64,000 nucleotides of DNA from an uncultured archaeon (GTDB lineage: Archaea > Nanobdellota > Nanobdellia > Pacearchaeales > GW2011-AR1). The DNA lies in the NCBI GenBank assembly GCA_902385655.1, contig CABMGO010000005.1, positions 99,584 through 163,583 of the forward strand, written 5' to 3'. This document shows, in pieces, positions 1,104 to 57,254 of this stretch (the stretch's first letter is position 1; each line of letters opens with the position of its first letter). A program made the translations under genes and the position numbers. The notes beneath the pieces are model-generated. The model searched no databases. It was not told the origin of the DNA and saw nothing but the letters and a program-made list of their open reading frames with translations.

Positions 1104-1976
1104 ATGTTCTTATTAACTCAGTTCATTGGGTTATTTGTAATTTCGTCTCACGTTGTTCCAAACTATCTTGACGCACAGGTTTCAGATCAGGAACAATTAA
1201 GTTATGGATATTATTTTTTTAATATTATAGTTTCTTTAGCGATGGCAGTTCTTATTTTTGTTTTGATAACAAAATACAAACTTGTTGCCTTCATGAGAAT
1301 CTGGTTTTTAGTCGTCTTAACAATTGCACTTTCCATTTCACTTTCAGCGATAATAAAGTTATTTGGATTAAATTCGTACTGGATAGCTTTGATAATCGCA
1401 ATTCCACTAGGAATACTTAAACTTGTCCGACCCTCGATAATAATTCACAACGGAACAGAACTTTTAATTTATCCCGGCCTAGCAGCGGTTTTCGCCCAAA
1501 TACTTTCTCCACTATATGCGATTTTATTTTTATTATTAATTTCGATTTATGACTTCTGGGCAGTTTGGCATTCAGGACTAATGCAAAGAATGGCAAAATT
1601 CCAAATGAATGAAATGAAAGTGTTTGGAGGATTTTATATTCCATATTTAACAAAAGAACTACGAGAAAAAATACAAAAAATGAAAATAAAATTCAGAGGT
1701 AAAAAGATAAACAAGAAAATAGGAATAAAAGTTCCAATCGCAATTTTAGGTGGAGGAGACATTGTTTTCCCGATAATAACTGCGGGCGTATTCATGAATG
1801 CATTCAACAGCATCGCACCAGCAATAGCAATAATTCTCGGAGCTTTCGCAGGATTAACTTATTTGCTTATGGTTTCACATAAAAAGAAATTCTATCCAGC
1901 AATGGTTTATATAACTCCTGGAATATTAATAGGATTAGCAATTTGGTTTTTATTAAGATACTTTAGTCTTGCTTAA
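1104..1976 (+). CDS. Presenilin/signal-peptide-peptidase-like GxGD intramembrane aspartyl protease (A22 family, PSH-like)
   Basis: ~9 predicted TM segments; YD motif (SIYDFW) in TM6, a lysine-rich loop, GxGD (LGGGDIVFP) in TM7 and a PAL-like YPAM motif in the last TM; size ~290 aa, like archaeal PSH. Confidence 0.5.
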   Translation: MFLLTQFIGLFVISSHVVPNYLDAQVSDQEQLSYGYYFFNIIVSLAMAVLIFVLITKYKLVAFMRIWFLVVLTIALSISLSAIIKLFGLNSYWIALIIAIPLGILKLVRPSIIIHNGTELLIYPGLAAVFAQILSPLYAILFLLLISIYDFWAVWHSGLMQRMAKFQMNEMKVFGGFYIPYLTKELREKIQKMKIKFRGKKINKKIGIKVPIAILGGGDIVFPIITAGVFMNAFNSIAPAIAIILGAFAGLTYLLMVSHKKKFYPAMVYITPGILIGLAIWFLLRYFSLA

Positions 1977-2286
1977 AACCCATGTGAGCCCCAGCTCTTT
2001 TATGTCTACTGTTGATATGCTCCACTTTCTTTTCTAGAAATCCATCTTTCTGAGGAGTAATTGAATAACGAACACCCAGAGTAAAAAGTGCCAAAGAAAG
2101 CCGAGTAGGAGATTCAGTTTCAAGCATAGCTAATTTACCTTCAGGACAAAAAACTATTGAAGGCAACAGATCGACATAACCTAAGTCATAATTTGGCTTA
2201 GCAACTCGGCCCATGTAATCTCCATTCTCAAATGTAATAAATACTTCTCGTCCAATAAACTCATCAATAGGAGATCTTTCTGCCAT
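1963..2286 (-). CDS. Hypothetical protein (possible Sm-like fold)
   Basis: ORF only; weak resemblance. Confidence 0.3.
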   Translation of the reverse strand: MAERSPIDEFIGREVFITFENGDYMGRVAKPNYDLGYVDLLPSIVFCPEGKLAMLETESPTRLSLALFTLGVRYSITPQKDGFLEKKVEHINSRHKRAGAHMGFKQD

Positions 2287-2448
2287 AACTAGTTCGAGCC
2301 TAAAGCCTATTTAAATATTATTATAGTGTCACTAAGCAATTACAACAAAATGGAAACATTTATAAAGGAGTTTTTTATTGAGTCTGAGTAGTAAAAATGG
2401 CAATAGAATCAAGTTTAACAAATAAATTGAAGAAAGGAAAGAAATAAA

Positions 2449-2679
2449 ATGAGTTTCGCACAAGATTATCCAGTACTTACAGGTCTTTTGGTTGCAGGAG
2501 CTATAGGACTCTCTATTCTTTCAAACAGAGTAAGCGATTTAGAACAAAAACTAACTCCTCAAACAGAAGTTGTTTCAGGAAGAACAAATACTTATTTTAA
2601 TATCTCCGGGCAAAAGGTTTATAATTTAGTTGATGGAAAACCAGCAACTAACTATTTTCCAAGAGGAGAAAAACAATGA
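2449..2679 (+). CDS. Small membrane protein; stop overlaps the TrmB start (ATGA)
   Basis: SD-like AGGAAAG upstream; one TM helix; translational coupling. Confidence 0.4.
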   Translation: MSFAQDYPVLTGLLVAGAIGLSILSNRVSDLEQKLTPQTEVVSGRTNTYFNISGQKVYNLVDGKPATNYFPRGEKQ

Positions 2680-3461
2680 TAGCAAAACCAGAACTAATAA
2701 AGAAAGTAAAAGACTATTTTGATTTAAATATTTACGAAACCAAAGTTTGGCTTGCTCTTTTAACAAGAGGAATCTCATCTGCAGGTGAAATCGCAGAAGT
2801 TTCCGGAGTTCCAAGATCAAGAACATATGATGTTTTAGAATCTCTTGAAAAAAGAGGATTCGCAATTGAAAAATTGGGAAAACCTGTAAAATATCTTGCA
2901 GTAAAACCTTCAGTAGTTATTGAAAAATTGAAAAATAACACAATGAAGTATGCTGAAGAAAAAGTAGAAGTCCTTTCAAAATTAAAAGATACCAAAGAAT
3001 ACGAGGAATTACAAACACTTCATACAACAGGTATCGAACCTATGAAAAACCATGAATTATCAAGTTCTATCAAAGGAAGATCAAACTTATATTCTCAATT
3101 AAGAGACACTATGGAATCAGCAGACACTTCTGTTTACCTTGCAACATCTGCATATGAATTAATGTCAAAACAAAAAATGTTTTCTGAAGTTTTCGCTAAA
3201 CTAAAGAAAAGAAATGTAGACATAAAAATTATAGTCTCTGATGATGAATCTGAAGTAAAAAAACTTGTAAAAAAATTCAATGTTCCAATCAAGTCTAAAC
3301 ATATCAATTCTAGATTCTTGATGGCAGACAGAAAAGAATTAATCTTTACATTAAAACCAACAAACGTTCATGAAGATTATGATTATGCCTTCTGGATAAA
3401 TTCTGAATATTTTACAAATTCCTTAGCTTATATGTTTGAATTAGCTTGGAATTCTAATTAA
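2676..3461 (+). CDS. TrmB-family transcriptional regulator
   Basis: N-terminal wHTH YETKVWLALL...GVPRSRTYDVLESLEKRGF is typical of TrmB; paralog at 56216-57019. Confidence 0.75.
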   Translation: MIAKPELIKKVKDYFDLNIYETKVWLALLTRGISSAGEIAEVSGVPRSRTYDVLESLEKRGFAIEKLGKPVKYLAVKPSVVIEKLKNNTMKYAEEKVEVLSKLKDTKEYEELQTLHTTGIEPMKNHELSSSIKGRSNLYSQLRDTMESADTSVYLATSAYELMSKQKMFSEVFAKLKKRNVDIKIIVSDDESEVKKLVKKFNVPIKSKHINSRFLMADRKELIFTLKPTNVHEDYDYAFWINSEYFTNSLAYMFELAWNSN

Positions 3462-3474
3462 TTTAGGAGAAAAA

Positions 3475-3678
3475 ATGAGAGAATATTATAATAATAGATA
3501 TGGAAATTATGATTCTTTAATGGGATATGTAGTTCTTATGGGATTGGTTATTTGTATGGGTGGAATTGGAAAATATTTCTCAAAAGAAAACCCAAGAAAA
3601 GATATGAAAGTTGCTCAAGTTCAGCAACATGCCGCAGAATCTAATCTAGTTCAAAAAGTAAGTGGAGGAAAACAGTAA
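3475..3678 (+). CDS. Small TM protein, first gene of a coupled six-gene unknown operon
   Basis: TAATG overlap with the next gene; hydrophobic core. Confidence 0.4.
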   Translation: MREYYNNRYGNYDSLMGYVVLMGLVICMGGIGKYFSKENPRKDMKVAQVQQHAAESNLVQKVSGGKQ

Positions 3679-3887
3679 TGGATAAAGATATGATTACATT
3701 TTTCGAAGTAAGAAATCCAACTGGAAAACCTGTAAAGAATTTAACGCTAGGACTAGAATCTGCAGCAAGTATAACTATCAATACATTTTATGAAAATCCT
3801 GCAAACAAATATAGAAAAGTTGAAGTTATGATAATGCCAGAAGACGTTGCAAACGAGGTTAGAAAATACTTGGAGGGAAAACAATAA
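3678..3887 (+). CDS. Hypothetical small protein
   Basis: TAATG start/stop overlaps on both sides. Confidence 0.4.
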   Translation: MDKDMITFFEVRNPTGKPVKNLTLGLESAASITINTFYENPANKYRKVEVMIMPEDVANEVRKYLEGKQ

Positions 3888-4378
3888 TGGTAGACGATTA
3901 TTCCTATGATTTGAAAGCTATGAAAGAAGACCAAGAAACATTAAGATTATCTCGGAAAAAAGATCCACTCGTAATCGCAGATGGAGTAGAAGAAAATGGC
4001 GATGCAGAAGGATACACGCCAGTACCTTATGATGAAGAAAGAGATGGACCAAGATGTTTACATAGCCTAAGTCCCGAAGAAGAAAAAGAATTAAAAAAAC
4101 GTTTAATTAGACAAGACATCTTAACCGAGAAAAAAAGATATGAAGAGCTGAACTTCATTGGAGGATTAACTGCCTCAGCAGGAGCATTTCTAGGAAGTAT
4201 AATAGACTACGAACTAAGAAAACATGGGGCATATGTTCCAGGTTGCGAAAATCTCGGGACAATTATCTGGACATTAGGAATGGCTTGTCCAGGAACAGGA
4301 TTGGTGATTGGGAATTATGTGCATTCAAGAAGAAACATAAGCGATCTTAGAAATAAATTATCCGAACTTGAAAAATAA
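3887..4378 (+). CDS. Hypothetical protein with acidic N-terminus and C-terminal glycine-zipper TM segments
   Basis: ORF; GxxxG-rich hydrophobic stretches. Confidence 0.45.
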   Translation: MVDDYSYDLKAMKEDQETLRLSRKKDPLVIADGVEENGDAEGYTPVPYDEERDGPRCLHSLSPEEEKELKKRLIRQDILTEKKRYEELNFIGGLTASAGAFLGSIIDYELRKHGAYVPGCENLGTIIWTLGMACPGTGLVIGNYVHSRRNISDLRNKLSELEK

Positions 4379-4379
4379 A

Positions 4380-4925
4380 ATGGCAAAAATAACAATAAAG
4401 AGAAGAGAACTAGACAATCCGCAAGATTCTTTAGATGCACTAGAAGCAGAACCAATAAGTTCAGAAAAATTTGCAAGATTATTTAGATTTGCCTTAGAAT
4501 ACGAAGTCACAAATGACACATTTCCAAAATCAGTAGTATACTCAATAACAAGAGAGATGACAGATGGAATGGGAGACCCTGCTATATATTTAGTAATGAA
4601 ACAAACTTGCTTCTTTGACAGAGACAAGGAAGGAACAATTGTCCCTACTTCTAGAAGATATATTGGAGGAAAAGGAGCAACATACGGATTAACATTTGAA
4701 AATGCAGAAGCAAAAGCATACAAACTTGCAAAAAATACTGCAGAATATTATGCAAAACAAAATAATTCGGGAGCACGTTTAGAAATTGAAGATTTAACTG
4801 GTAAGAAAGGGTCTAGACTAGAACTTCTTGCAGATAGTCTTAGACTAAACTCTGGAGAAACTCCAACAACTGAAGAAGACCGAGAACATCCTTCTGCAAT
4901 GTGGGAAATACAGCCAGGGGCTTAA
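4380..4925 (+). CDS. Hypothetical soluble protein (start reassigned to the ATG 2 nt after the upstream stop; the ORF-track start is TTG)
   Basis: ORF; coupling taaaATGg. Confidence 0.45.
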   Translation: MAKITIKRRELDNPQDSLDALEAEPISSEKFARLFRFALEYEVTNDTFPKSVVYSITREMTDGMGDPAIYLVMKQTCFFDRDKEGTIVPTSRRYIGGKGATYGLTFENAEAKAYKLAKNTAEYYAKQNNSGARLEIEDLTGKKGSRLELLADSLRLNSGETPTTEEDREHPSAMWEIQPGA

Positions 4926-5228
4926 ATGGTAAACGAAAAATACTTTTTATCAAAACTCTTTAAAATAAGAAGATCGGAAACAGCAATAAGACAAGAGTTC
5001 GATTGTGCGTTGGTTATGCTTGTACAAAATCATGCTCGAGGAAGACCTGTTTCAGAAATAGCAAATGAATTGAATGAACAAAGGAAGCTTAGAGTAGAAA
5101 TGTTAAAACACCCTTATAGGTTATATTTAGAACTAAAAGAAGAAGCAGAAACAGCTGCACCACAACTTGTAGATTCAATAACAGCACTAGCAGACCAAGT
5201 TGGAGATGAAATAGCAAGATACGCATAA
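4926..5228 (+). CDS. Hypothetical protein
   Basis: ATG immediately after the upstream TAA. Confidence 0.45.
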   Translation: MVNEKYFLSKLFKIRRSETAIRQEFDCALVMLVQNHARGRPVSEIANELNEQRKLRVEMLKHPYRLYLELKEEAETAAPQLVDSITALADQVGDEIARYA

Positions 5229-5665
5229 TGAAAAAGAAATCTCTTGTTTCTAAACTTACACAAGAAGCAGCAGACAGTCTTCTTTATGTAGCAGAAAAAT
5301 CTTGGAGAATTAGTCCAGATGAATTAAATCCTAATCAACAAAACTATTCTGATGGAGATTACAACAGACAAAAGAAGCTCAGAGGAGCATATGCTTTAAT
5401 GGGGCTTGGAATGGGTGGATTTGCAGTATGTTCTGGCATTGCAGGAGCAGCTAATATGATCTCAAGTGTAATTGACGGAGTAAAATATTTTTCAGAACCT
5501 TCTAATCAGTATCTAGCAGGCCAAACCTACCATTTCATTCAAAGTAATTGTTTTCTATTCTTAGCCTTAGCAGGAGTAAAAACTGTCTCTCCGATTGCAA
5601 ATAGGATCGAACTCTTAACAAAAAAAATAGAAAAATATAAATCTCAACACCCAACAATAGACTAA
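5228..5665 (+). CDS. Hypothetical membrane protein (glycine-zipper TM)
   Basis: TAATG overlap; GLGMGGFAVCSGIAGAA segment. Confidence 0.45.
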   Translation: MKKKSLVSKLTQEAADSLLYVAEKSWRISPDELNPNQQNYSDGDYNRQKKLRGAYALMGLGMGGFAVCSGIAGAANMISSVIDGVKYFSEPSNQYLAGQTYHFIQSNCFLFLALAGVKTVSPIANRIELLTKKIEKYKSQHPTID

Positions 5666-6504
5666 TCAATTTTTATTTTAACATTCCACCTAAACTTCTT
5701 TACACCAATATCACCTGCCTTTCTAAATTCAGTAATTTTATATTTCTTACCAAATTTTTTCAAATCTCTTTCAATCTCATTTCTTACCTTCTCTTCTTCA
5801 CCAAATCCATGATAATAAATCAGAGTTCCTTTCTTAGCAACTTTCAAAGCAGCATCTAAAAATGTATCTTCTAAATTTGGCCTTAACATTAAAATAAAAT
5901 CAAATTTATCTTTTTTTCTGCTCGCAGAATTAACACAAAACTTCCTAGAATCTCCACAAACTACTTGCACATAATCCTGGACTTTATTCATCTCAACATT
6001 TTTTTCAGCAAATTCACATGCTTTTTTATTTAACTCAGAAGAGATAATTTCAATAGACAGTTTATTTTTCTTAAACAGCTTAGCCAGTACAATGGCCTGA
6101 GGTGCAACTCCTCCAAACATAACAAGTACGCTAGGAGACCTTAACTTACTAGCAAAAATCTCCTCAGCAACAACCTTTCTTTCCTGACTCAAACGAGGAG
6201 AAAAGTAAGTCTCATCAACATTCAAATAAAAAGAACAATCATTTTCTTTGTGAATAGTATCTTTTCTTTTTTCTCCCGCAACCCATTTAGTCTCTTGAAC
6301 TCTTAGTTCTCCAGAAAAACCTGAAGTTTTTTCCAGAATAACTTTTATGTGCCGATTATTCTTCAGAAACCTCCGAGCATAGAATTTTTTAAGAATCCAA
6401 GGATGCCATCTAGCAAACTTCAGAATAGCAATATCTCCGACAACATCTAAAGGTATTCTCATAGAGTTATAACTAGAAGAAACCTTAAAAACCTTCTTAA
6501 GCAT
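5662..6504 (-). CDS. Class I SAM methyltransferase of the Met-10+/Trm5/Taw2 family (tRNA m1G37 methyltransferase-like)
   Basis: DVVGDIAIL motif and Rossmann segment, typical of archaeal Trm5/Taw2. Confidence 0.55.
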   Translation of the reverse strand: MLKKVFKVSSSYNSMRIPLDVVGDIAILKFARWHPWILKKFYARRFLKNNRHIKVILEKTSGFSGELRVQETKWVAGEKRKDTIHKENDCSFYLNVDETYFSPRLSQERKVVAEEIFASKLRSPSVLVMFGGVAPQAIVLAKLFKKNKLSIEIISSELNKKACEFAEKNVEMNKVQDYVQVVCGDSRKFCVNSASRKKDKFDFILMLRPNLEDTFLDAALKVAKKGTLIYYHGFGEEEKVRNEIERDLKKFGKKYKITEFRKAGDIGVKKFRWNVKIKID

Positions 6505-26171: not shown

Positions 26172-27040
26172 ACTTTTGAAAGTTTCTTTAGTCTATTTTC
26201 TAAAACAGGCAAACTAGAATTAATTTTTTGAAGCCTCTCATGATACGAACTTGTTCTAACGTTATAAGTTAAAGCAGATATCTTATTCTCTTTAAATCGA
26301 TCAGTTTGTGCCTTTTTAATAAGTTCAGAAAGTGTGCTTTTCTCAGAATGTAATTTTCTAACTGTCATCCTCAAAAATCTAATTCTTAATTTAACATAAA
26401 CAAAATAAGTAAAGAAAATTAATATAACAATAAAAATAGTTATCTGTATCCAGTATCGATAAAAAAAGTTTCTCGCCTGTAATGCCAAACTTTTGAAAAT
26501 AGAATTATTTCCATATTCAGAATCATAAGAAGTTCTAAAACTCTCTAAATAGGTTTGAGACTCATTTAGCCTACCATTATAAAAAGAATCTCGCGCCAAT
26601 AAAAAGTAGTTAGAAGTTTCATTAGAAATAGGATCAGATAATTTTTTTTGCTCAAGATTTAACAGATCATACAAATCCAAAGTTTGCGAGCGAATATCTG
26701 AAACTCGGTTTGTCAAAGCAACGACATCTGAATACTGCAAATTCTTCCAATTTATAAACTGAAGTGCACTTCTTGCATCAATTCTTTCTTGCAAACTAGA
26801 ATTAACTTCTCCACGCAAAATTTGAGCATAAAGAACTTGTATGTAAACATTCTTCGCCTCGACAATTGTATCATTGATATCTGAGTAAGGCAAACTAAGA
26901 TTGATAAACTCATTCAAAATTTTTTCACTATTATTTATTGCGATCAATGCATCTTGAGCAGAATATGTCTGATTTGCTTCCGCCGCTAAAACAAAACTTC
27001 CAAAAAATAAAAATAGCGATAATAAAATTAACTTTTTCAC
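26168..27040 (-). CDS. Secreted or anchored coiled-coil protein (signal peptide, C-terminal TM anchor preceded by FFYRYW, short cytoplasmic tail); GTG start, GTGA-coupled to the giant gene
   Basis: N-terminal signal MKKLILLSLFLFFGSFVLAAEA; C-terminal TM; overlap aaGTGAaa. Confidence 0.5.
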   Translation of the reverse strand: MKKLILLSLFLFFGSFVLAAEANQTYSAQDALIAINNSEKILNEFINLSLPYSDINDTIVEAKNVYIQVLYAQILRGEVNSSLQERIDARSALQFINWKNLQYSDVVALTNRVSDIRSQTLDLYDLLNLEQKKLSDPISNETSNYFLLARDSFYNGRLNESQTYLESFRTSYDSEYGNNSIFKSLALQARNFFYRYWIQITIFIVILIFFTYFVYVKLRIRFLRMTVRKLHSEKSTLSELIKKAQTDRFKENKISALTYNVRTSSYHERLQKINSSLPVLENRLKKLSKV

Positions 27041-30000
27041 TTTGTAGCCACCTGCAAATATTTGCCTTCATATTTATCTTGGTTATTAACCAAATGCAAG
27101 GTGGTTTTCTCATTTTCTATTTCAGCGAGTCTCTCAGTGTACATCTCAAACTCAATGTCATACTCTGCCTTAGAAATTAATTTCTTTTTGAAATAATTTT
27201 CCTGCAATCTCACTATTTCAGATTCAACTTGCTTCGCTTCCAATTCTAAGTCCTTAGAAACTTGTTGAGCACTTAAAAGTTTTATCCGATTATTCCTTAA
27301 ATTAACTCTAGACTTCTTAATATTTGCAATTCTCTTCTGATATCTGTTCATCTCATCATGATAATCATGTGCAGACTTTCTTCCAGAAAGATACAATTTC
27401 TGAGAATGCTTTCTCAATTCTCCAATAGTCTTCTCTTCCTTATTTAGATCCTCTATTTTTTGAGAAATAGAATTTTTCTTATAAGCTCTAAAGCCTACAA
27501 TAGACACAAAACTCAACAAAATCAAAGCAACTAAAACGTATTGCCAGTACAGATAAAAGAACAACCCAACATTACCCTTTCTCTCTAAGACAAGAAGTAC
27601 TTGCGCCTGTCTCGCTCTCTCGAGTGCAAGTTCATAGTCTCCCCTCTCAAATGCTGCAGAAGCCAGATCAATAATCTCTTGAACATCTTGACTTGCAAAA
27701 ACTGCCTTACCTGTCACGTAATCAAAACTAGAAACACTTTGATTGTTGATATTAACTTCCCGAGCAACATTTCCGACAATTAAATTTGTCTTTGCAGGAT
27801 CATTCAAAGCAGTGACCAACCTGGCTATTAAATCATTCACAGTAAACGCCATCTTGCTAATGTCTATGACTTGTGAAGATAAATCGAAAGACTCCTTATT
27901 TCTTCTTATATCCAATTTAGATTTTGCTTGGTCAAACAAACTCTGAACATTAACCACATTAAATAAGTGCTCAGTCATATTCTTAAGTGCCTTCTCAGCA
28001 TCAAATAACTTATTACTAGCAACCTCATAACTTACTTCTTGAATGATTAATTTAATATATTGTGTTTCAGTATAATCACCGACAGTTTGATTATAAACAA
28101 TCTGTCCTCTAATATGTGCAGTAACATTATATTCTTCGTAAGCTTCCTTGTATGAAGGAACCTTCAAGGTAACAGTAAAAGATCCATTGGAGTTTGGACC
28201 AAGATATTTAATAATTGAAGGATAAAAGTCCATGTATTGAGACAAATATCCTGTTAAGTTAAGAGACAGATTTTGAAGGCTTGCCCCAGAACGATTATTT
28301 TGAACAACAAGATCGAGCTTGCCCCCCTCACCTCGAACAACATCAATTATTTTCGAATAAACTATTTCAGCTCCCCCGCCACCGCCGGCCTGGCTACTAA
28401 TTGTTCCGCCACCGCCGGCCTGAACAACAGTTTGAGTAATAGTTAGTGGATTTGTAATTCTTATATTCCTTAAATCAGAGGCGCTATCAGCATTAGATGA
28501 ATTAGCAAGAGCAGAAACATTAACAATTGAACCCGATATTGAAGAAGAAACATTTATCTTAATTGAATTTGTTCCAGAAACACCTACCGGAACAGTACCT
28601 AGATATCTAGACAGTATTCCAGAAGTTAAATCAAAACCTGAAGGCAAACTCCAGCTAAGATAAACGTCGTGAGCGTCAGCAGTTCCAAGATTAGTAACTG
28701 AAACAACAAAGTCTAGATCTCCTTGCCCTCGAGTAACTGAAGATGAGTATGTGTCAATAGAAACCGATAAATAAGGACCAGAAGCAGTTTGAACATTTAA
28801 GTTTCTTTCAATCACAACAGTTCCAGCTTCAGATCTAACAGTTATGTTATAAGGATAAAGAGCAGAAGTTAAACCAGTTAAGTTAACATACAGGGGAAGA
28901 TACAAAACATCTCCAGAAGATGCAGAATAATTTTCAGTTTGATTTAAAGTGTTATTCAAATTAAATCTGCCAACAATATCAGCACTCGCACTAATTGAAA
29001 CATTATAATTCAAAGAAGTATCCGAAGTTGTATTTAAAATAATGTAACCTAACTCATTGGAAGAACTTCTTTCGGTATAAGTAAAAGATTTCACAACAGT
29101 TATATTTGTACTGATAGCCTGAGAAACATCAGGATAGACACCAAGAGTATAGTTCGAAGAAATATTAGTATTGCCTTGCGCATCACTAGCATTAACATAA
29201 AATGTCCAGTTACCTTCGGCAAAAACAATGGAAGTATTATAATTCGTTAAGCTATTATTTGTCATCAGAGAAGTTGACCAAGAAGAATCTGAAATATTTT
29301 TATAATAAACTATTGCGCTACCCATCAAGTAATTATCACTAACTGTTGCATTTATTGTAACATCTACCCCCGGATCAAGTTCGTCACTAGTATTTGGAGA
29401 ATAAATTATTTCGCTAACTGATGGAGCCCGGTCATCCAAAACTGTCACAGTTCGACTTACACTATCATTAACTCTTCCAGCCAAATCAAACAAATAAACT
29501 TGAATAGAATAGACTCCAGGAGTATAATTTCCTTGAGTAAACAAGTAATTAATTGAATCAGCTGTTCCGCTCAAATCAATCTGAGAACCATTTACAAAAC
29601 TTCCGGAGAAATTATTACTTAATATTGCATAATCTAATCCAACAGCATCGGAAAAAGAGGCATTACATGTCAAATTTTTAGAATCATTAACTGTATTGTC
29701 ACAATTAAAAGAGTTTACAGAAGGGTTATTCAAATCCACACTCACAACCACAGTTCTATTTCCTTGATTTTTATTTGAAGAAGTATCATTCGCATAAAAA
29801 ATAATATTGTGTACTCCTTCAGCTAAACTAATAGTTGCATTCCAATTTCTCAAACTAGTATTACCCAAGTTAAATATACCAGAACCATTATTATATCCAG
29901 CCCAAGAAAGATCTTCGTTAGTACTTATATTCAATAATACGGAACCATCTAAGTCATATGAATTATTTAATGGAGATAAAACAGTAATAACTGGTGCAAC

Positions 30001-33000
30001 CAAATCGTTTACAGTCGTATCTACAACAATACTAACATTTGCAATTCCTAAATTGCCAGAACTATCAATTGCATAAAATATAACAGTATAACTTCCATCA
30101 GCAAGAGTCGAAGTTTTACTCCAGCTTACACCACTTCCAGTTAAAGAAACATTTGTTGTGCCTCCATCTAAACTATAATTTACTGAAACTACTTCCTCGT
30201 TTGTCGTTAGACTAAATAAGATAGAACTAGTCGAATAATTCTGAGCAATGGGAGAATTAATTGTTAAGACTGGAGCAGTCACATCATTTACATCGAAGGT
30301 AGTCGAAGTTGAATCCGTATTTCCTGCAGCATCAGTTGCATAAAATCTACAAGTGTAATCACTTCCTTTTTGAACATTTATAATAGTATAATTAGCATAA
30401 CCTGTAGAACTTAAATCGATTGTATGATTCATAAAAACCATCGGAGTAGTAGCGTCTTCACTAATTTTAACACTTGATAATGCGAAACTATCATTAATAT
30501 AGGCTGTACAATTCGCATTCTGAGTTTCATTTACAGATGTAGCCGAAACAGAACTGAATCTTGGAGCAAGAGTGTCCGCATAAAAAATAATTGAAGAACT
30601 ACCAATATTCCCAGAACTATCATTAGCATAAACCACTAAACTATTTGTAGATTCTTGAGCCAAGTCCGGAAGAGTTGCATTCCAGTTCAAAAGAGTAGTA
30701 TTGGTCAAAGAAATATTTGCACTTCCATTAAGAGAATATTTAACCCAGCTAACATTTTCATTAACACTTACATTTAATGCAACCCCGCTCAAAGATTTAT
30801 AAGAAGCATTTGCAATAGAATTTATCGTAACAACAGGAGAAATAAGATCTCCAGCACCAGTATTTATACTGAATACTACCGCACTAGAAACTCCTAAATT
30901 TCCAGAAGAATCATTTCCATAAAAGACAATAGAATATGCTTGGCCACTTACACCAGTAAAAGTTGCATTCCAATTCGTAGGTGAAGTATTTCCCATAGAA
31001 TAATTGAATCCAGTAGAATTGAGATGATACCAACCAGCAGACAAATTCTCATTTGAAATAAAACTGAATAATATATCTACCTGATTATAAACTCCACCAT
31101 TAGTTGGACTTGTTACAGTAATAGAAGGAGCAGTCACATCACTTACACTAAATGATGCAGAAGTAAAATTAGTATTCCCAGCTACATCAGCTGCGTAAAA
31201 TCTACAGACATAATTTCCAGCGTTAGCCAATTTACTTCCAACAATTACATAACTAGCTAATCCAGAATTTCCAGAAAATGAAATTGTGTGATTTTCAAAA
31301 CTACCTAAAGAATTTTCAGAAATAATTACTGAATTTATATTATAAGTGTCATTCCAGTAAATAGAACAATTTACAGGCAAAGACTGATTTGTCGAAGGTG
31401 CAGAAACAGAAGAATACCTTGGAGCCAAAGAATCAGCATAAAAAACAATTGTCCTGTTACCTTGATTTGCAGAACTGTCATTGCCGTACACAGTAATAGT
31501 ATAATTTGTTTCTTGACTCAGAGAAGTTAAATTAACATACCAAACTCTTGCAGTAGCACTCGTCAAATTCAATAAACTTCCACCGTTCAATCTATATCCT
31601 GCCCAAACCAAATCTTCGTCAGAACTAACATTAACATATGTTCCAGAAGGATTAGTATAGCTAGCATTAGATGGAGAAACAAAAGTCAAAGAAGGAGCAG
31701 TGATGTCTACTGGAGTTTGAATAGTAAAATATCTCAAAACACTAGATCCAAAGTTTCCAAAACTATCATTCGCATAAAAAGTTATGTTATGCAAACCATA
31801 AGCTAAGTTATTCAGACTTGCAATAAAAGAAGTTGATGAAAGATTAGTCATCGAAACATTTGCCGTGCCGTCTAAAGAATATCTTGCTGAAGCAGAAGCC
31901 TCTGAAGTTGCAATTTCAGCACTAATATTTACAGAAGAAAAACTAGTATTAGTCGGAGAAATAATTGTTATAGTTGGACCTGTTGAATCAGTTGTATAAC
32001 TTCCAGTCAAAGGATTTGCAGTAGCAGATTCATTCAAAGCATCTAAAATGTATGCATACCAATTATGTGTTGCAGAATCACTTTCAGAAGCAAACCCACA
32101 ACTAAGATTCGCAATAGCAGTTGCAAAGCAGTAAGTTCCATAGGTACATCCCGAGTTCGATATTCCAGATTGATTACAAACATACAACTTAATCGTCTGC
32201 CCAGAATCTGAATCAGAAGAAACTGTTGAAATGCTAACTGTCGTCCCGCCCAAAATTGTAGCAGCATTATCCGTTGCAGAACTAAAAACCGGAAGTTGAT
32301 TTATTTTTATTGTTTTACTAACTAGTGTTTGATTGTTACCTGAATAATCCGAAGAAAAATATCTCAAGTAATTTGTGCCTCTAACTAAAAAATTTATCTG
32401 ACCAAGATTATCTATCGCACCAGAAGGAGTACAAGTATTTGTTGAATCAGTACAATAATATGTTTTAGGATCAGAGTCAACATTATCTGCCTCGCTAATA
32501 GTTACTGCATACCCAGGTAATTGAACACTAGAAACCGAATTATCCGAAGTTGTTGGCGCAGTATAATCTAAAGTAAAATCTACATTCAAATTATCAGAAG
32601 CAGTCTGCTCATTTCCGTAAGAATCTTTACAAGAAACGTATCTCGTTGTTGCACCCTGAGAAACCACATCACTAACATTACAAGCAGCATATATTCCAGA
32701 AATGCTGCATTGATGACCTGAAGACATAGAAGAATAAGAACTATCTGAACTACTCCATCTGCAACTCATTCCAGATTGACCTGAGATATTTATCAGAGTA
32801 AATAAATCATTAACATTATCATAGTAGGGCGCAATAGTTCTCCCAGCAACACTTACAACAGAAGTAGACATTGAACTTCCGAGAACTGTGTAAGTATAAT
32901 TTACTTTATTAGAGTAAGAAACTCCATCGTACATCCTACAATAAATAGTATAATTTCCTGCGACTTTATTAGGAGTATAAGTACAATAAGGAGAGTAAGG

Positions 33001-34083
33001 ACTTAATAAATTAGAAACATTTCCTGAAGAACACATAGAGTTGTCTACTGGAAAAAGTGGAAAACTATCTGAACAATAAAATTGAAGAGTATCAAGATTA
33101 CTATCATTAACACTGTTGGCAGTAATATTCAAACTAGTAGAAATTCCGGAAGGATTTGGAGAAACAGTAATATTAGAAATAGTTGGAGGTAGATTAACAA
33201 AAAAAGTTAACGAGCTAGATGCATTATTTCCATAACTATCGTTTGCATAAACATACCATGTGTGGCTTCCAACAGAATCTGTCAAACCCGAAGTGATGTT
33301 TACCTGAACTCCAGAAGTGCAACTAAAACTTATATTTGTCCCATTACCATTATACCAACAAGACGCCAAATTATTATCACTAACAGTTACATTAAGACTT
33401 GTAACATTCGAAGTATAAGTAGTGTTCAGGGGATAAACAACATTTATTGAGGGAGGAATAGCATCAGGAGTATAAGTAACATTAAAATAAAGATCATCTA
33501 CGCTAAGTGTCTTCGCACCACCGGTTGTTGAAGCAACCTGTAAATATGCAATCGCTCTTGATCCCGAAGCCGTAAAAAAACTATCACAAGACCAATTTTC
33601 AATAGAAGTTACATCAGTACAAATTTCTCCAGGATTTGCAGTTGTTCCCGGACAAACACTAGAAGCAGTTTGATAAGAACCACCGGCATGTGCATCAACA
33701 CTGACACTACAAGTACCAATAGAAGAAGAGCTAGACCACCATTCATAACAAACTTTTACATTAGTAATCCCTCCGCAATTAGAAACACTAGAGTTATAAT
33801 TAGAAGTTCGAATACCCATAAACTGATTATTCCCATTGACAGAAGCACTCTGAATAACTGCATTATTAGTATCAATACTTGTTGTAGAACTACAAACTCC
33901 ACCGAACCCTTCACTAATCCCACTATTATTTTCTACAGCACAAGCCTGCGAAACCAAAACACTATTGGGAGAAGTTGCTCCAGGAAAAGCAAAAGCAGCT
34001 AATACACCAGCCAAACTCAAGAGAACAATAAATAAGAAAAAAACAGAAGAAATTCTTAAATTAGCTAATTTTCCAATAATCAT
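27037..34083 (-). CDS. Giant (2348 aa) cell-surface protein: N-terminal signal/TM, >20 Ig-like ~90-aa repeats extremely rich in N-x-S/T sequons, Gly runs, C-terminal TM anchor (FFYLYW...) and ~220-aa cytoplasmic coiled-coil tail
   Basis: SD GGGAGGAG 9 nt upstream; repeated motif AP..T..SP.N.SY...NE...Y.L.G...N.T...W...FYANDSSGN; hydrophobic helix near aa 2095-2120. Confidence 0.85.
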   Translation of the reverse strand: MIIGKLANLRISSVFFLFIVLLSLAGVLAAFAFPGATSPNSVLVSQACAVENNSGISEGFGGVCSSTTSIDTNNAVIQSASVNGNNQFMGIRTSNYNSSVSNCGGITNVKVCYEWWSSSSSIGTCSVSVDAHAGGSYQTASSVCPGTTANPGEICTDVTSIENWSCDSFFTASGSRAIAYLQVASTTGGAKTLSVDDLYFNVTYTPDAIPPSINVVYPLNTTYTSNVTSLNVTVSDNNLASCWYNGNGTNISFSCTSGVQVNITSGLTDSVGSHTWYVYANDSYGNNASSSLTFFVNLPPTISNITVSPNPSGISTSLNITANSVNDSNLDTLQFYCSDSFPLFPVDNSMCSSGNVSNLLSPYSPYCTYTPNKVAGNYTIYCRMYDGVSYSNKVNYTYTVLGSSMSTSVVSVAGRTIAPYYDNVNDLFTLINISGQSGMSCRWSSSDSSYSSMSSGHQCSISGIYAACNVSDVVSQGATTRYVSCKDSYGNEQTASDNLNVDFTLDYTAPTTSDNSVSSVQLPGYAVTISEADNVDSDPKTYYCTDSTNTCTPSGAIDNLGQINFLVRGTNYLRYFSSDYSGNNQTLVSKTIKINQLPVFSSATDNAATILGGTTVSISTVSSDSDSGQTIKLYVCNQSGISNSGCTYGTYCFATAIANLSCGFASESDSATHNWYAYILDALNESATANPLTGSYTTDSTGPTITIISPTNTSFSSVNISAEIATSEASASARYSLDGTANVSMTNLSSTSFIASLNNLAYGLHNITFYANDSFGNFGSSVLRYFTIQTPVDITAPSLTFVSPSNASYTNPSGTYVNVSSDEDLVWAGYRLNGGSLLNLTSATARVWYVNLTSLSQETNYTITVYGNDSSANQGNRTIVFYADSLAPRYSSVSAPSTNQSLPVNCSIYWNDTYNINSVIISENSLGSFENHTISFSGNSGLASYVIVGSKLANAGNYVCRFYAADVAGNTNFTSASFSVSDVTAPSITVTSPTNGGVYNQVDILFSFISNENLSAGWYHLNSTGFNYSMGNTSPTNWNATFTGVSGQAYSIVFYGNDSSGNLGVSSAVVFSINTGAGDLISPVVTINSIANASYKSLSGVALNVSVNENVSWVKYSLNGSANISLTNTTLLNWNATLPDLAQESTNSLVVYANDSSGNIGSSSIIFYADTLAPRFSSVSATSVNETQNANCTAYINDSFALSSVKISEDATTPMVFMNHTIDLSSTGYANYTIINVQKGSDYTCRFYATDAAGNTDSTSTTFDVNDVTAPVLTINSPIAQNYSTSSILFSLTTNEEVVSVNYSLDGGTTNVSLTGSGVSWSKTSTLADGSYTVIFYAIDSSGNLGIANVSIVVDTTVNDLVAPVITVLSPLNNSYDLDGSVLLNISTNEDLSWAGYNNGSGIFNLGNTSLRNWNATISLAEGVHNIIFYANDTSSNKNQGNRTVVVSVDLNNPSVNSFNCDNTVNDSKNLTCNASFSDAVGLDYAILSNNFSGSFVNGSQIDLSGTADSINYLFTQGNYTPGVYSIQVYLFDLAGRVNDSVSRTVTVLDDRAPSVSEIIYSPNTSDELDPGVDVTINATVSDNYLMGSAIVYYKNISDSSWSTSLMTNNSLTNYNTSIVFAEGNWTFYVNASDAQGNTNISSNYTLGVYPDVSQAISTNITVVKSFTYTERSSSNELGYIILNTTSDTSLNYNVSISASADIVGRFNLNNTLNQTENYSASSGDVLYLPLYVNLTGLTSALYPYNITVRSEAGTVVIERNLNVQTASGPYLSVSIDTYSSSVTRGQGDLDFVVSVTNLGTADAHDVYLSWSLPSGFDLTSGILSRYLGTVPVGVSGTNSIKINVSSSISGSIVNVSALANSSNADSASDLRNIRITNPLTITQTVVQAGGGGTISSQAGGGGGAEIVYSKIIDVVRGEGGKLDLVVQNNRSGASLQNLSLNLTGYLSQYMDFYPSIIKYLGPNSNGSFTVTLKVPSYKEAYEEYNVTAHIRGQIVYNQTVGDYTETQYIKLIIQEVSYEVASNKLFDAEKALKNMTEHLFNVVNVQSLFDQAKSKLDIRRNKESFDLSSQVIDISKMAFTVNDLIARLVTALNDPAKTNLIVGNVAREVNINNQSVSSFDYVTGKAVFASQDVQEIIDLASAAFERGDYELALERARQAQVLLVLERKGNVGLFFYLYWQYVLVALILLSFVSIVGFRAYKKNSISQKIEDLNKEEKTIGELRKHSQKLYLSGRKSAHDYHDEMNRYQKRIANIKKSRVNLRNNRIKLLSAQQVSKDLELEAKQVESEIVRLQENYFKKKLISKAEYDIEFEMYTERLAEIENEKTTLHLVNNQDKYEGKYLQVATK

Positions 34084-42209: not shown

Positions 42210-45200
42210 TTAAGTATTTAAACTCTCCGAATTTTTCGTCAGAGGAGATTTAAATGGCAACGTAAAAATAAACTTACTTCCTTTTCCTTTTTCACTTTCA
42301 ACCCAAATTTTTCCACCATGAGTCTCGACAATTCCCTTACAGATAGTAAGCCCTAATCCGACACCCTTATGTTTAAGTTTGTAAGAGGGACTAATTTGAG
42401 AAAATGGCTTAAATATTTCCGATTGCTTTTCTTTTGATATACCGATACCCTCATCTTTTACACTTACAACAACCTGATTATCTCTTTTCGAAATTTCTAC
42501 ATGAATATGGCTATTTTCAGGACTAAATTTTATAGCATTACTTAACAAATTAGTAAAAACCTGTTTTATTCTAAATGGATCCACAAATAATATTGGCGTC
42601 TTTACACTATTAAAGCTAATTTTTATGTGACTTTGTTCAGCAAGTGCAGAAACAGTAGAAATTGCATCTTTTGCAATAATATCCATTTCTGAATCTTCCG
42701 GAATAACTTTCAAACTTTTATTTTGTATTGTCGCAACATCCAAAACATCTCCAATCAATTGATTTAAGGTTTTCATGTTTCTAGTAATAAGGTCTACACT
42801 GTTTTTTTGTTGTTCTGATAAATTACCCATATATCCCTCTTGTAACATTTGTGCCTGAATTAAAATTGGAGTCAGTGGTGTTTTCAATTCATGCGAGGTA
42901 AATGCTAAGAACTGATTTTTCATTTGATCAAGTTCTTTTAACTTTTCATACGCATCCTCCAATTTCCTTTTAGCCTCTACATCAGAACTAATGTCTCTTA
43001 CAGTTGCCTGCAGAAATTTTTTCCCATCCTTCTCGACTAAACTTAATAGGACTGTTGCAGGAAAATCTCCATCCCCTATTCGTTTATGAGTCCACTCAAA
43101 ATAATTCGACCCATTTTTAACAGCCAAATTAATCATTTTCTTAGCTTTAACAGAAGACAATTCCCCGTCAGACTGATATTTAGGAGAAACATCTATTGGG
43201 CCAAGAGAAATAAATTCTTTTTCATCCTTACAATTAAACATTTTCAGAGTCATGGGATTTCCAGAAGTAAACTTAAAAGAAACAGTATCTAAAGTCATGA
43301 TAGCATCAGCCGAACCTTCATACAAAATCCGATATTTTTTTTCGCTTTCAAGAATTTTTCTTTCCGATGCCTTCAAGTCAGTAATATCTTCAGAAATACC
43401 TAAAAGATATTTAGGACTCTTCTTTTCATCGAGAATGGGAATTTTCTTAGTATGTAAAAGTCTTTCTCCCCTCGGAGTCTTAATTGGTTCTTCAGGAATA
43501 TCTAAAAGTTTTTTCTTATCTAGCACATCTCTATCTTTTTTAGTAAAAAAATTTGCCTGTTTTTTAGGAAAAAAGTCATAATCATTCTTGCCGTAAAAGT
43601 TCTCTCTTTTTTGACCGAGTAATTCTTCTCCAGCTTTATTGAACAGTTCAAATCTCAAATCTTTAGCATCTTTTACAAAGATCATGTCTGGAACATTCTC
43701 AACAACCGAATTCAAGAAAGCAGTCTGCTTTTGAAGTTCAGAAGTTCTGTCTATAACAATTTTGTCCACATTCTCTTTCTCTCGTATAAGTTCATCTTCT
43801 GCTTTTTTTATTTCATCGATATTAATAATTACACTAACAATTTCCTTTAATTTACCTCTTTCATATATGGGGTTCCAAGAGTGAGAAACCCAATAGACTC
43901 TTTTGTTTTTCCCAATAATTCTATATCTTAAATTCTTTCCAGGCATTCCCTTAACAGCCTCAGAAAGAAATTTTTTAACAAGCGGTATGTCCTCTGGATA
44001 AAAAATATCCGGAACAGTGCCTACAAGATCTTTAGCCGGCCAGCCAAAAACTTCCAAAGAGGTCGGACTTAAATAAGAAACAACTTTATTTGACAAAGTA
44101 AGCATCATTACAGCATTTGAACTTTCAGAAATAAGCTTGTACTTTTCCTCACTTTCTTGTAGCTTTTCCTCTGTTTTTTTTCTTTCAGTAATGTCTTGAG
44201 CCGTTCCGTAAAGGCAAACAATTTTTCCATGCACATCACGTTTTACAGCACCTCTAGCGAGAATCCACTTTCCATAAATATCTGGCTTTCGATACATTAG
44301 TTCAAGCTCGTATGGCTTTCCAGTTTCCATAGCCGTTTTCACAGCCGCATCCAGCAACTTCGCATACTTTGGTGCATAAGCTTTTAGATGATTAACATAA
44401 TTAGGAGTGGGATCATTTAGTCCGATATTATAAATTCTACGATATTCTGCAGACCAGACAATACTATCTGTAGGAATATCCCAATTCCAGCTCCCGATAT
44501 GGGCAATCTGTTGTGCTTCTTCAAGATCTTTCTCAGTCTTTCTCCACTGAGTTACATCTCTGAAGATACCTATCTGAAAAATTTCATCACCCAATTTTAA
44601 AGAAGTAGCAGAAATATCTGCATAAAAAATAGATCCATCTTTTCTGACCACAGGCAAATTTGAAACTATTTTAATTTTTCCTTCAGCTTGTAATTTAAAT
44701 TGTTTAAGAGCATATGAAAGATCTTTTTTTGGATGAATATCATTTACACCAAGTCTAAGAACTTCCTCGCGAGTATACCCTAAAAGATTACAGAAGGCAT
44801 CATTAGCCATAATGAATTTCTTAGAGTTTAAGGTAGCCAAAACAACTCCATCAACAGCGTTATTAAAAATAGCTTTAAACTTCTCCTCGCTCTCCTGTAG
44901 TTTTTCTAAAAAAATTTCTTTTTCAGTAATATCTCGATTAGTTCCTCGGTAACCTCTAAAATTTCCAAAGTCATCAATAATTGGATTGCCACTTGCTTCC
45001 AAGAGAACCAAAGATCCATTTTTATGCAAAGTCCAATTACCCAAATCTTTCATTGGAGCTCTTTTCTTAACAAGAGAATCATAGATAGCTTTGACCCTCT
45101 TAGCTTCGCCAGGAGGCATAAAATCAAAATGAGTCTTTCCTATCATTTCTTCAGGACGATAACCCAAAATATCCTTAACAGAAGAACTCAAATAAGTATA

Positions 45201-45662
45201 CTTTGCATCCTTATCAACTTCCCAAATAATATCGCTAGTTGACTCAACAATATCCCTAAACCTTTTTTCACTCCGTTTTAACAAATCTTCAGACATCTTA
45301 GTTTTAGTTATATCTTGAGAAAAAATTAAAACACCTTCAGAAACAGGATTTATCGAAAGAAGAAATGTCCCCTTAGAACCATCGGGATAGACAAAAACAT
45401 TTTCCATACTCACAGATTTTCTAGTCTTCAAAACCTGTTTAATTTTAGAAAAAAGTTCGGTCTTTTCTATTCCAGGATAACACTCCGCCATAGTATTCCC
45501 TATTAATTCACTACGCTTTTTTCTTGCATGCTTTTCTAAAGAATTATTTGCATAAATATACCTGTATTCGCCATCAATAATCTGCGCACCCTCGATAACA
45601 TTATCCAGGGGTGCATACTTTTCAGCAACAAGATGCAAAAAAGCCTCAAAATCCTCTTCCAT
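42210..45662 (-). CDS. Multi-PAS sensor histidine kinase (1150 aa; >=6 PAS/PAC, HisKA, HATPase_c)
   Basis: H-box FLAFTSHELKTPL; N/G boxes NLLSNAIKFS...VKDEGIGIS...GVGLGLTICK; repeated PAS cores. Confidence 0.9.
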   Translation of the reverse strand: MEEDFEAFLHLVAEKYAPLDNVIEGAQIIDGEYRYIYANNSLEKHARKKRSELIGNTMAECYPGIEKTELFSKIKQVLKTRKSVSMENVFVYPDGSKGTFLLSINPVSEGVLIFSQDITKTKMSEDLLKRSEKRFRDIVESTSDIIWEVDKDAKYTYLSSSVKDILGYRPEEMIGKTHFDFMPPGEAKRVKAIYDSLVKKRAPMKDLGNWTLHKNGSLVLLEASGNPIIDDFGNFRGYRGTNRDITEKEIFLEKLQESEEKFKAIFNNAVDGVVLATLNSKKFIMANDAFCNLLGYTREEVLRLGVNDIHPKKDLSYALKQFKLQAEGKIKIVSNLPVVRKDGSIFYADISATSLKLGDEIFQIGIFRDVTQWRKTEKDLEEAQQIAHIGSWNWDIPTDSIVWSAEYRRIYNIGLNDPTPNYVNHLKAYAPKYAKLLDAAVKTAMETGKPYELELMYRKPDIYGKWILARGAVKRDVHGKIVCLYGTAQDITERKKTEEKLQESEEKYKLISESSNAVMMLTLSNKVVSYLSPTSLEVFGWPAKDLVGTVPDIFYPEDIPLVKKFLSEAVKGMPGKNLRYRIIGKNKRVYWVSHSWNPIYERGKLKEIVSVIINIDEIKKAEDELIREKENVDKIVIDRTSELQKQTAFLNSVVENVPDMIFVKDAKDLRFELFNKAGEELLGQKRENFYGKNDYDFFPKKQANFFTKKDRDVLDKKKLLDIPEEPIKTPRGERLLHTKKIPILDEKKSPKYLLGISEDITDLKASERKILESEKKYRILYEGSADAIMTLDTVSFKFTSGNPMTLKMFNCKDEKEFISLGPIDVSPKYQSDGELSSVKAKKMINLAVKNGSNYFEWTHKRIGDGDFPATVLLSLVEKDGKKFLQATVRDISSDVEAKRKLEDAYEKLKELDQMKNQFLAFTSHELKTPLTPILIQAQMLQEGYMGNLSEQQKNSVDLITRNMKTLNQLIGDVLDVATIQNKSLKVIPEDSEMDIIAKDAISTVSALAEQSHIKISFNSVKTPILFVDPFRIKQVFTNLLSNAIKFSPENSHIHVEISKRDNQVVVSVKDEGIGISKEKQSEIFKPFSQISPSYKLKHKGVGLGLTICKGIVETHGGKIWVESEKGKGSKFIFTLPFKSPLTKNSESLNT

Positions 45663-57019: not shown

Positions 57020-57053
57020 GGAGATAAATATGGCAGAAGAAGAAGGATAAAAA

Positions 57054-57254
57054 ATGATAACAAGTTTGGATATAAGTTGGAAATTAGTAAGTATAATAGT
57101 TTGGGAATTAGTCTGGAAAGGCCTAGCACTTTATAGAGCTGGAAAGAAACAACAACCTTGGTGGTTCTTCTTTTTATTAATAATTAATAGCATAGGAATT
57201 TTACCAATTATTTATTTGATAATTTCTAGAGACAAAAAGAAAAAGAGAAAATAA
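57054..57254 (+). CDS. Small membrane protein with lysine-rich tail
   Basis: Two TM helices. Confidence 0.35.
   Translation: MITSLDISWKLVSIIVWELVWKGLALYRAGKKQQPWWFFFLLIINSIGILPIIYLIISRDKKKKRK

Follow-up and report, generated by a model that had tools for sequence, protein, structure and literature searches.

A conserved TrmB-family gene of Woesearchaeota and Pacearchaeota lies among small cargo genes that differ from genome to genome

Introduction

Archaea of the DPANN group have tiny genomes in which regulators are scarce and the majority of accessory genes lack an explanation. Here we analyse a run of eight tightly packed genes (positions 2449-5665) in a 64,000-nucleotide stretch of DNA from an uncultured member of the Pacearchaeales (contig CABMGO010000005.1; the whole stretch is hereafter called the window). 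The second of these genes encodes a regulator of the TrmB family; we number the products P1 to P8, P2 being TrmB, and refer to the remaining seven as cargo. The cargo genes on both sides of TrmB differ completely between related genomes, while promoter, TrmB and flanks are fixed. An earlier reading made from the window's sequence alone (the original prediction) had instead proposed a dedicated regulator heading six tightly coupled small proteins of unrecognised kind.

Several described systems come close to this arrangement. Replacement-type flexible genomic islands are hot spots between conserved flanks, as exemplified by the O-antigen and glycosylation islands of marine and halophilic prokaryotes. 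The TrmB locus is like them in its fixed position, its unrelated content in relatives, its absence of mobility genes and an instance of one-gene allele replacement. Unlike them, it measures only 0-4 kb, holds small cytoplasmic or membrane proteins without known relatives (ORFans) instead of surface-glycan enzymes, and lies inside what appears to be a single transcription unit, where the cargo flanks the regulator on either side and invariably shares its strand. In bacteria, regulator-headed defence islands carry winged helix-turn-helix (wHTH) regulators of the BrxR/CapW type. The likeness here is a conserved wHTH regulator beside variable cargo; the differences are that no cargo protein matches a defence family and that TrmB belongs to the core genome and to no mobile island. 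Integron cassette arrays, finally, offer a functional analogy, given a fixed promoter followed by variable, same-orientation, promoterless small genes of mostly unknown function, albeit with no nearby IntI, no space for attC and no repeats at the present locus. A literature search returned no paper on this locus.

Results

TrmB is the fixed element of the locus. Scanning one genome per species, we found orthologues at 48-89% identity in 22 metagenome-assembled genomes of Woesearchaeota/Pacearchaeota, and tblastn searches around them revealed a constant order: a CPSF-type nuclease, a presenilin/SPP-type protease, TrmB, a gap and a convergent trm5, beyond which related genomes carry (ZIP), Ogg and archease. 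TrmB is thus a vertically inherited core gene of these lineages in fixed synteny. None of P1 and P3-P8 is present at the TrmB loci of the 22 genomes by tblastn, and some of these loci have nothing before trm5; TrmB is therefore no dedicated regulator of the six downstream genes, contrary to what had been proposed.

What occupies the site in the relatives? The TrmB-to-trm5 gap extends from ~150-200 bp (L025, L017; related loci are given L numbers throughout) up to 3.9 kb (L008). Long gaps contain other small genes, closely spaced and on the same strand, that differ genome to genome, with unrelated gene sets in the gap across 13 genomes and zero Pfam matches among the cargo of these other gaps. 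L010, L011 and L012 have some gap families in common, in different order. On the 5' side, the space between protease and TrmB is taken up in about half of the genomes by unrelated small genes, one to four in number, that touch or overlap the start of TrmB, and the genes upstream of TrmB in L011 belong to families that lie downstream of TrmB in L010 and in L011 itself. Same position, conserved flanks and differing content in relatives are the features by which accessory-gene hot spots are recognised, and all three are found here.

The promoter is conserved as well. A region of ~75 nt upstream of the first plus-strand gene, sitting between divergent genes, aligns across 16 genomes (window 2324-2399; L007-L023). 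The invariant columns of its B recognition element (BRE) and TATA box read GAAA..TTTATAAA, the box being written GAAASATTTATAAA. Upstream of BRE/TATA, the closest relatives carry an inverted repeat, GTTGTC-N10-GACAAC, which is a candidate site of TrmB autoregulation. In genomes lacking a 5' insertion, TrmB (MAII/MVII...) begins at a conserved ATG, and the same ATG opens a short leader open reading frame (ORF) in the window whose codon score is not coding-like. Judging by the alignment, this ATG is the ancestral TrmB start position; because it now opens the leader ORF, we read P1 as inserted between promoter and TrmB, and the leader ORF looks like a scar of that insertion. At the other end of the unit, the P8 and trm5 stop codons overlap (5662-5665) in convergent orientation with zero spacer, so that any terminator of either gene must lie within the coding sequence of the other; a T-rich tract just past the P8 stop is a candidate archaeal terminator. 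From BRE/TATA to the P8 stop, the pattern TTTAWAWA has one other match on the plus strand, at 2723, within the 5' end of TrmB. Given a single consensus promoter upstream, before P1, and the T-tract after P8, co-transcription of the whole unit from the TrmB promoter would be the simplest reading. The gene divergent from the unit (1963-2286, minus strand) encodes 107 amino acids (aa) and has no Pfam family; counterparts of 106-119 aa occupy the same place in L007-L013 and L021, tblastn having detected the one in L009 only.

All eight ORFs are on the plus strand, with junctions of -4 to +13 nt (Table 1). This part of the original prediction holds: the sequence bears out a 76-aa membrane ORF overlapping the TrmB gene by ATGA, every junction is coupled as claimed, and the genes form one tightly coupled unit on one strand, its sole upstream promoter-consensus match lying before P1. 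The six ORFs after TrmB are likewise real, with the upper end of their size range at 181 aa from the P6 ATG and not at 185 aa, an alternative TTG start being unnecessary. Small proteins encoded just before the next start frequently end in G-[GE]-[KE]-Q (gene ends in 2449-3887; L001-L029; L008-L021) because the Shine-Dalgarno sequence of the gene that comes next, GGAGG, is built into their last codons; translation signals therefore dictate C-terminal residues.

Table 1. Coordinates of the TrmB unit, its control elements and its convergent flank in the window
Feature	Position	Strand	Description
Operator-like element	2324-2347	+	TAGTGTCACTAAGCAATTACAACA here, degenerate; from 16-genome alignment
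BRE/TATA box of TrmB unit	2353-2366	+	GAAACATTTATAAA; from 16-genome alignment
Conserved initiation region	2386-2399	+	GAGTAGTAAAAATG; ~20 nt past BRE/TATA
Leader ORF	2397-2447	+	16 codons, MAIESSLTNKLKKGKK (MAIESS...); stops 1 nt before P1
P1	2449-2679	+	76 aa; single-pass membrane protein; variable cargo between promoter and TrmB
P2 (TrmB)	2676-3461	+	261 aa; ATGA overlap with P1; lineage core gene
P3	3475-3678	+	67 aa; single-pass membrane protein; 13-nt spacer with AGGAG before start
P4	3678-3887	+	69 aa; soluble; TAATG junction
P5	3887-4378	+	163 aa; helical hairpin (model); TAATG junction
P6	4380-4925	+	181 aa from ATG; alpha/beta; TAAaATG junction
P7	4926-5228	+	100 aa; helical by eye; TAAATG junction
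P8	5228-5665	+	145 aa; two Gly-rich hydrophobic segments, charged C-terminal helix; TAATG junction
trm5/TYW2-type methyltransferase	5662-6504	-	Convergent conserved flank; overlaps P8 stop by 3 nt
T-rich tract	5670-5679	+	TTTTTATTTT; 5 nt past P8 stop, inside trm5 3' end; candidate terminator

Are such short frames genes at all? The window is archaeal DNA of low GC content (~33%), and at this composition stops occur at ~7.3% per codon, so that the chance of a frame staying open for 145-163 codons or more is ~1e-5 to 5e-6; over the lengths from P8 to P6 (145-181 codons), chance frames are very unlikely (~1e-5). A 67-codon frame is not improbable by chance (6e-3), and P3 is considered a gene because of its exact coupling and its transmembrane helix, not because of frame length. 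Codon usage in frame resembles that of the host's long genes in all eight ORFs, by a test that is not strand-specific, as in-phase antisense ORFs score too. All eight are also present in the NCBI annotation (VVB80203.1-VVB80217.1; 'uncultured archaeon', 317-kb contig), where TrmB is named 'putative TrmBL2' and the other seven 'uncharacterised'. P4-P7 are under purifying selection relative to their homologues, with ratios of nonsynonymous to synonymous substitution rates (dN/dS) of 0.16-0.37, P4 being at 0.16. In the comparison of the window with L001, dN amounts to 0.43, 0.33 and 0.19 for P5, P6 and P7 (dN/dS 0.37, 0.24 and 0.21), against 0.04-0.12 (dN/dS 0.01-0.11) for the flanking trm5, ZIP, Ogg and hemerythrin genes. 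The cargo genes are real genes under constraint, yet evolve 2-10 times faster than the flanks.

Two Pfam domains define P2: a wHTH domain at residues 15-78 (PF01978; E 8.9e-19, 67.6 bits against a cut-off of 25.6) and an effector region (PF11495, Regulator_TrmB; E 2.4e-8, 33.9 bits against 22.2). The latter match spans profile positions 4-130 of 233, so the sugar-binding half is absent. TrmBL2 of the Thermococcales, a global repressor and chromatin protein, shares with P2 the wHTH, the first half of the effector domain and a length of ~260 aa; however, P2 reaches only 86.3 bits against the 530-bit cut-off of the TrmBL2 equivalog (NF041141, NCBIfam), which makes P2 a distant family member and not an orthologue. 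The window contains a second TrmB-family paralogue (267 aa; region 56216-57254, plus strand) after the isoleucyl-tRNA synthetase gene, followed 35 nt later by a 66-aa membrane protein with DUF5652: again a TrmB together with a small membrane protein.

Compared to TrmB, the cargo draws on a narrow and shuffled gene pool. P4-P7 recur in about nine to ten short metagenome contigs only. Among 5.8 billion proteins, P6 has three relatives at 56-58% identity, and one further relative came from searching 1.84 billion representatives exhaustively with a profile; P7, the best-conserved cargo protein, has three relatives at 73-75% identity, and P5 has six, forming a 7-member family. All relatives of P5, P6 and P7 derive from Logan assemblies of a few Sequence Read Archive runs. 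The P7 profile is absent from GTDB genomes, JGI metagenomes and IMG/VR; P5, P6 and P8 have zero matches in IMG/VR, and P5, P6 and P7 zero in phage records (INPHARED). No cargo paralogue occurs elsewhere in the window. Neither P3 nor P8 has a relative among the fetched loci, the large protein database not having been searched for either; P1, likewise not searched there, is a singleton among these loci, with one near-identical 77-aa sequence in a contig of the European Nucleotide Archive.

How is this pool arranged elsewhere? L001 carries P5-P6-95aa-P7-102aa followed by trm5, ZIP, hemerythrin and Ogg, its flank order being that of the window, and L031 has P5-P6-(33 aa)-P7. In L002, L003 and L004, P5-P7 stand with other neighbours; in L029 a P4 homologue (86% identity) lies directly upstream of a distant P6-like gene. 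In L005, which has different flanks, a 115-aa protein and then a homologue of P5 follow the end of a distant TrmB-family gene, with a convergent CCA-adding enzyme beyond them. The six-gene order is not conserved, then; the P5-(P6)-P7 block is. Of the single stoichiometric set that had been envisaged, only shuffled sub-blocks (P5-P6-P7, P5-P7, P4-P6-like) recur: the order P5-P6-P7 returns in L001 and L031, and the full order of six nowhere else.

Clustering of the fetched loci yielded P5, P7, P6/tail, DUF1653, P4 and 93-aa families. The last of these (MxTKxYxAxY...DLxVIVxAPxE), absent from the window, is found in two to three diverged copies per locus beside P5/P7 in L001-L004 and L029 (for example L002:1469-1750 and L004:1421-1699) and has zero Pfam or PDB sequence-profile matches. 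Homology of P4 to the 93-aa family and of an 82-aa family to P7 was rejected upon comparison. The resemblance of P1 to an 89-aa transmembrane protein of L002/L004 is a likeness by eye, with no BLAST match at E <1.

Known families offered little help in assigning functions. Among the eight proteins only TrmB matched: P3-P8 belong to no Pfam, NCBIfam, PHROG or PADLOC family, a PHROGs search returned only weak, transmembrane-type matches, and P1 and P3-P8 had zero matches to the PADLOC-DB v2 defence models at E up to 1. Pfam searches of the relatives' cargo identified DUF1653 only, and PDB sequence-profile searches with P5, P6, P7 and the DUF1653 protein gave zero matches. The six products were thus rightly called unrecognisable, the two folds that we could predict (P5 and P6) being without a match as well. 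As to their membrane character, hydropathy (Kyte-Doolittle, 19-residue window) supports one clear transmembrane helix each in P1 (1.77) and P3 (1.95). Two segments rich in Gly, Ala and Ser occur in P5 (1.50/1.53) as well as in P8 (1.55/1.37), with borderline hydrophobicity under the usual threshold of 1.6; some P5 homologues reach only 1.0-1.25. Three glycine-zipper membrane products had been expected among the six: P3 is clear as to its transmembrane helix, and for P5 and P8 glycine-zipper transmembrane segments are plausible, not certain.

P5 is the core member of the module and P7 the second. P5 features an N-terminal helix with the motif MxDDYSYD, an acidic linker, a GPRCL motif and a conserved C-terminus, KLSELEK. 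Its AlphaFold2 model places the N-terminal helix and a disordered acidic linker before two helices of 40-50 residues that form a hairpin, the tip of which carries the Gly-rich, weakly hydrophobic segments. Foldseek ranked the heads of the SmhB/AhlB toxins as nearest in shape (E 0.47, TMq 0.36; not significant), with Vipp1 and TolQ/ExbB among the other top shapes and likewise not significant (all E >=0.47, template modelling (TM) score <=0.47). Like two-helix membrane effectors, the alpha-pore-forming toxin hairpins of SmhB/AhlB and the hairpins of Vipp1/ESCRT-III, P5 is predicted to have a long helical hairpin with a hydrophobic tip rich in small residues; it is far smaller and shares no sequence similarity with them, the resemblance being non-significant and one of shape only. 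Between L002 and L004, from near-identical genomes, trm5 is 97% identical and P5 only 65%, and all of this divergence falls within the hairpin half, which points to allele replacement of the P5 hairpin. A P5-like layout (two Gly-rich, weakly hydrophobic helices and then a charged C-terminal helix) recurs in unrelated islands (L012:10834-11115, L015:9708-9980) and in P8 of the window (5228-5665). Homology to P5 was rejected for the hairpin proteins of other islands, hhalign being not significant, and none is detectable in sequence between P5 and P8.

The P6 model is an alpha/beta fold (predicted local distance difference test (pLDDT) 72, predicted TM score (pTM) 0.72) with residues 157-181 disordered; neither the PDB (best E 0.25) nor BFVD (best E 0.13) contains a matching fold. 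The disordered part ends in the peptide PSAMWEIQPGA, encoded at 4890-4922. An invariant C-terminal peptide, PSAMW[ED]xQPGA-stop, is shared by P6 of the window, L001, L031 and L029, and the same peptide ends an unrelated family of 115-116 aa (L004, L005). Its codons vary synonymously with the residues staying invariant, so the constraint on the tail acts on the protein. As a DNA pattern, the tail motif is absent from JGI metagenomes and IMG/VR. A P6 homologue without the tail (L030) belongs to another locus, from which both P5 and P7 are missing, and every tail-bearing gene on a long-enough contig has P5 nearby. We consider the tail a putative short docking motif, whose partner may be P5 (or P7).

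Discussion

How might such a site work? A single transcript of P1-TrmB-P3...P8 would start at the TrmB promoter, with TrmB probably controlling this promoter via the inverted repeat that precedes BRE/TATA, and translation of the genes could be coupled via the Shine-Dalgarno sequences inside the preceding genes' last codons. P5 might be what anchors a small complex to the membrane, or else its effector, with tail-bearing proteins docking to it (or to P7) by their C-terminal peptide. Exchange of cargo would proceed by homologous recombination through the conserved flanks. A conflict-type role of the module (defence, toxin/immunity or virus/host interaction), as opposed to housekeeping transport, may be suspected; it is unproven, and it fits the turnover of the cargo. 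Taken as a whole, the view that the cargo is expressed from the TrmB promoter, is exchanged horizontally and encodes a small membrane-associated complex, possibly conflict-related, is one for which we see the scales evenly balanced.

Several observations weigh against it. No cargo protein matches any known defence protein in PADLOC, and dN/dS stays below 1 in every comparison. The PGA of the tail coincides with an AGGAG-like Shine-Dalgarno sequence that serves the next gene, which means that some of its conservation may be translational, and the docking idea rests on co-occurrence in ~6 loci. As the related contigs are mostly short, the presence or absence of a partner is often unreadable. The hydrophobic segments of P5 and P8 are borderline as true transmembrane helices, and both co-transcription and the start site are features that we infer. 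A bolder version, wherein the core-TrmB operon is an integrase-free landing pad, with small ORFans that lack promoters being inserted, shuffled and replaced time and again on either side of the regulator behind its conserved and probably autoregulated promoter, and P5, P7 and tail proteins make up an undescribed membrane complex with a docking tail that takes part in virus/host conflicts, is correspondingly tentative, and we regard it as doubtful.

If true, a fixed expression site of this kind, repeatedly refilled with new small genes, would be a simple means by which such archaea try out accessory functions and swap them with no need for the machinery of mobile elements, and it would provide a defined place to look for conflict or host-interaction genes of DPANN archaea. 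For one module, the invariant tail on unrelated proteins together with a hairpin membrane protein already represents a concrete, testable handle.

Could the cargo be an abortive-infection or toxin-immunity system? P5 (and the analogous P8) would then be membrane-permeabilising hairpins, P6 and the tail proteins sensors or adaptors, and P7 the inhibitor. The modelled long hairpin with its hydrophobic tip would suit this role, as would allele replacement in the hairpin only, the speed at which cargo is replaced at one fixed site, the small partner proteins and, for what a non-significant likeness is worth (E 0.47, TM 0.36), SmhB/AhlB as nearest PDB shapes. However, there is neither a PADLOC match nor a significant structural match, toxicity of P5 is putative, and these archaea have no known viral counterpart. 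An assignment of P5 to the alpha-pore-forming toxins (ClyA/AhlB/SmhB) was rejected, there being no significant structural match and no sequence match; so was P7 as a ParE/RelE toxin, whose ParE_toxin score (PF05016; 19.0 bits against a cut-off of 23, E 0.0022) is below threshold and which has no PDB sequence match. We deem the toxin-immunity reading unlikely.

Alternatively, the ends of a strongly expressed operon might act as a gene nursery, tolerating young or de novo read-through ORFs without a joint function. The cargo consists entirely of ORFans, the site is occupied by unrelated ORFans in other genomes, and the fetched loci contain no relatives of P1, P3 or P8, all of which would be expected of a nursery. 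It accounts poorly for purifying selection on P4-P7, for a P6 that folds with the confidence given above, for a tail that is invariant at the protein level across unrelated bodies and for the recurrent P5-P7 linkage. As an explanation of the whole it is quite improbable; P1, P3 and P8 could still be products of a nursery even if the P5/P6/P7 core is excluded from it.

The arrangement put forward in the original prediction, TrmB dedicated to a fixed stoichiometric complex of six proteins (for transport, stress or defence) and conserved with it as a unit, is favoured by the tight coupling, by a consensus promoter that occurs only once upstream, ahead of P1, and by L005, in which a tail protein and P5 again come directly after a TrmB-family gene. 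Against this, 22 genomes that lack the six, some of them lacking any downstream cargo, have TrmB orthologues of up to 89% identity with the promoter conserved, and the full six-gene set exists nowhere else, sub-blocks only. This largely refutes the dedicated-regulator model, which we now judge highly unlikely.

Lastly, the locus bears no marks of mobility. No integrase was found there, the sole tRNA is at 25 kb, and no meaningful flanking repeats, att sites or repeat families were detected at the locus. A provirus or other integrated element was rejected on this basis, together with the absence of any PHROG family and of relatives in IMG/VR or INPHARED. An integron was rejected in view of junctions of -1 to +13 nt, no IntI and no repeat families, and neighbours that are CPSF, SPP protease, trm5, ZIP, hemerythrin and Ogg; the cargo genes overlap or abut, leaving no room for attC sites. 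That the cargo is the remnant of an integrated virus, plasmid or mobile element next to TrmB by chance is a very remote prospect, for although small, packed, same-strand ORFans are typical of archaeal viruses and P6 has a weak, non-significant likeness in shape to single-stranded RNA phage coat proteins, there is no integrase, nearby tRNA, flanking repeat or PHROG family, IMG/VR and phage records gave no match, the cargo resembles the host in base composition and codon usage, and many genomes fill this site, which lies within a conserved transcription unit, with cargo of a different kind.

Other features of the window

Two large genes on the minus strand lie well away from the TrmB unit. A 2348-aa ORF (27037-34083) with bacterial Ig-like domains (Big_13) is probably a giant surface protein of a kind common in DPANN genomes. 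At 42210-45662, a histidine kinase of 1150 aa with many PAS domains represents a large sensory protein for so small a genome.

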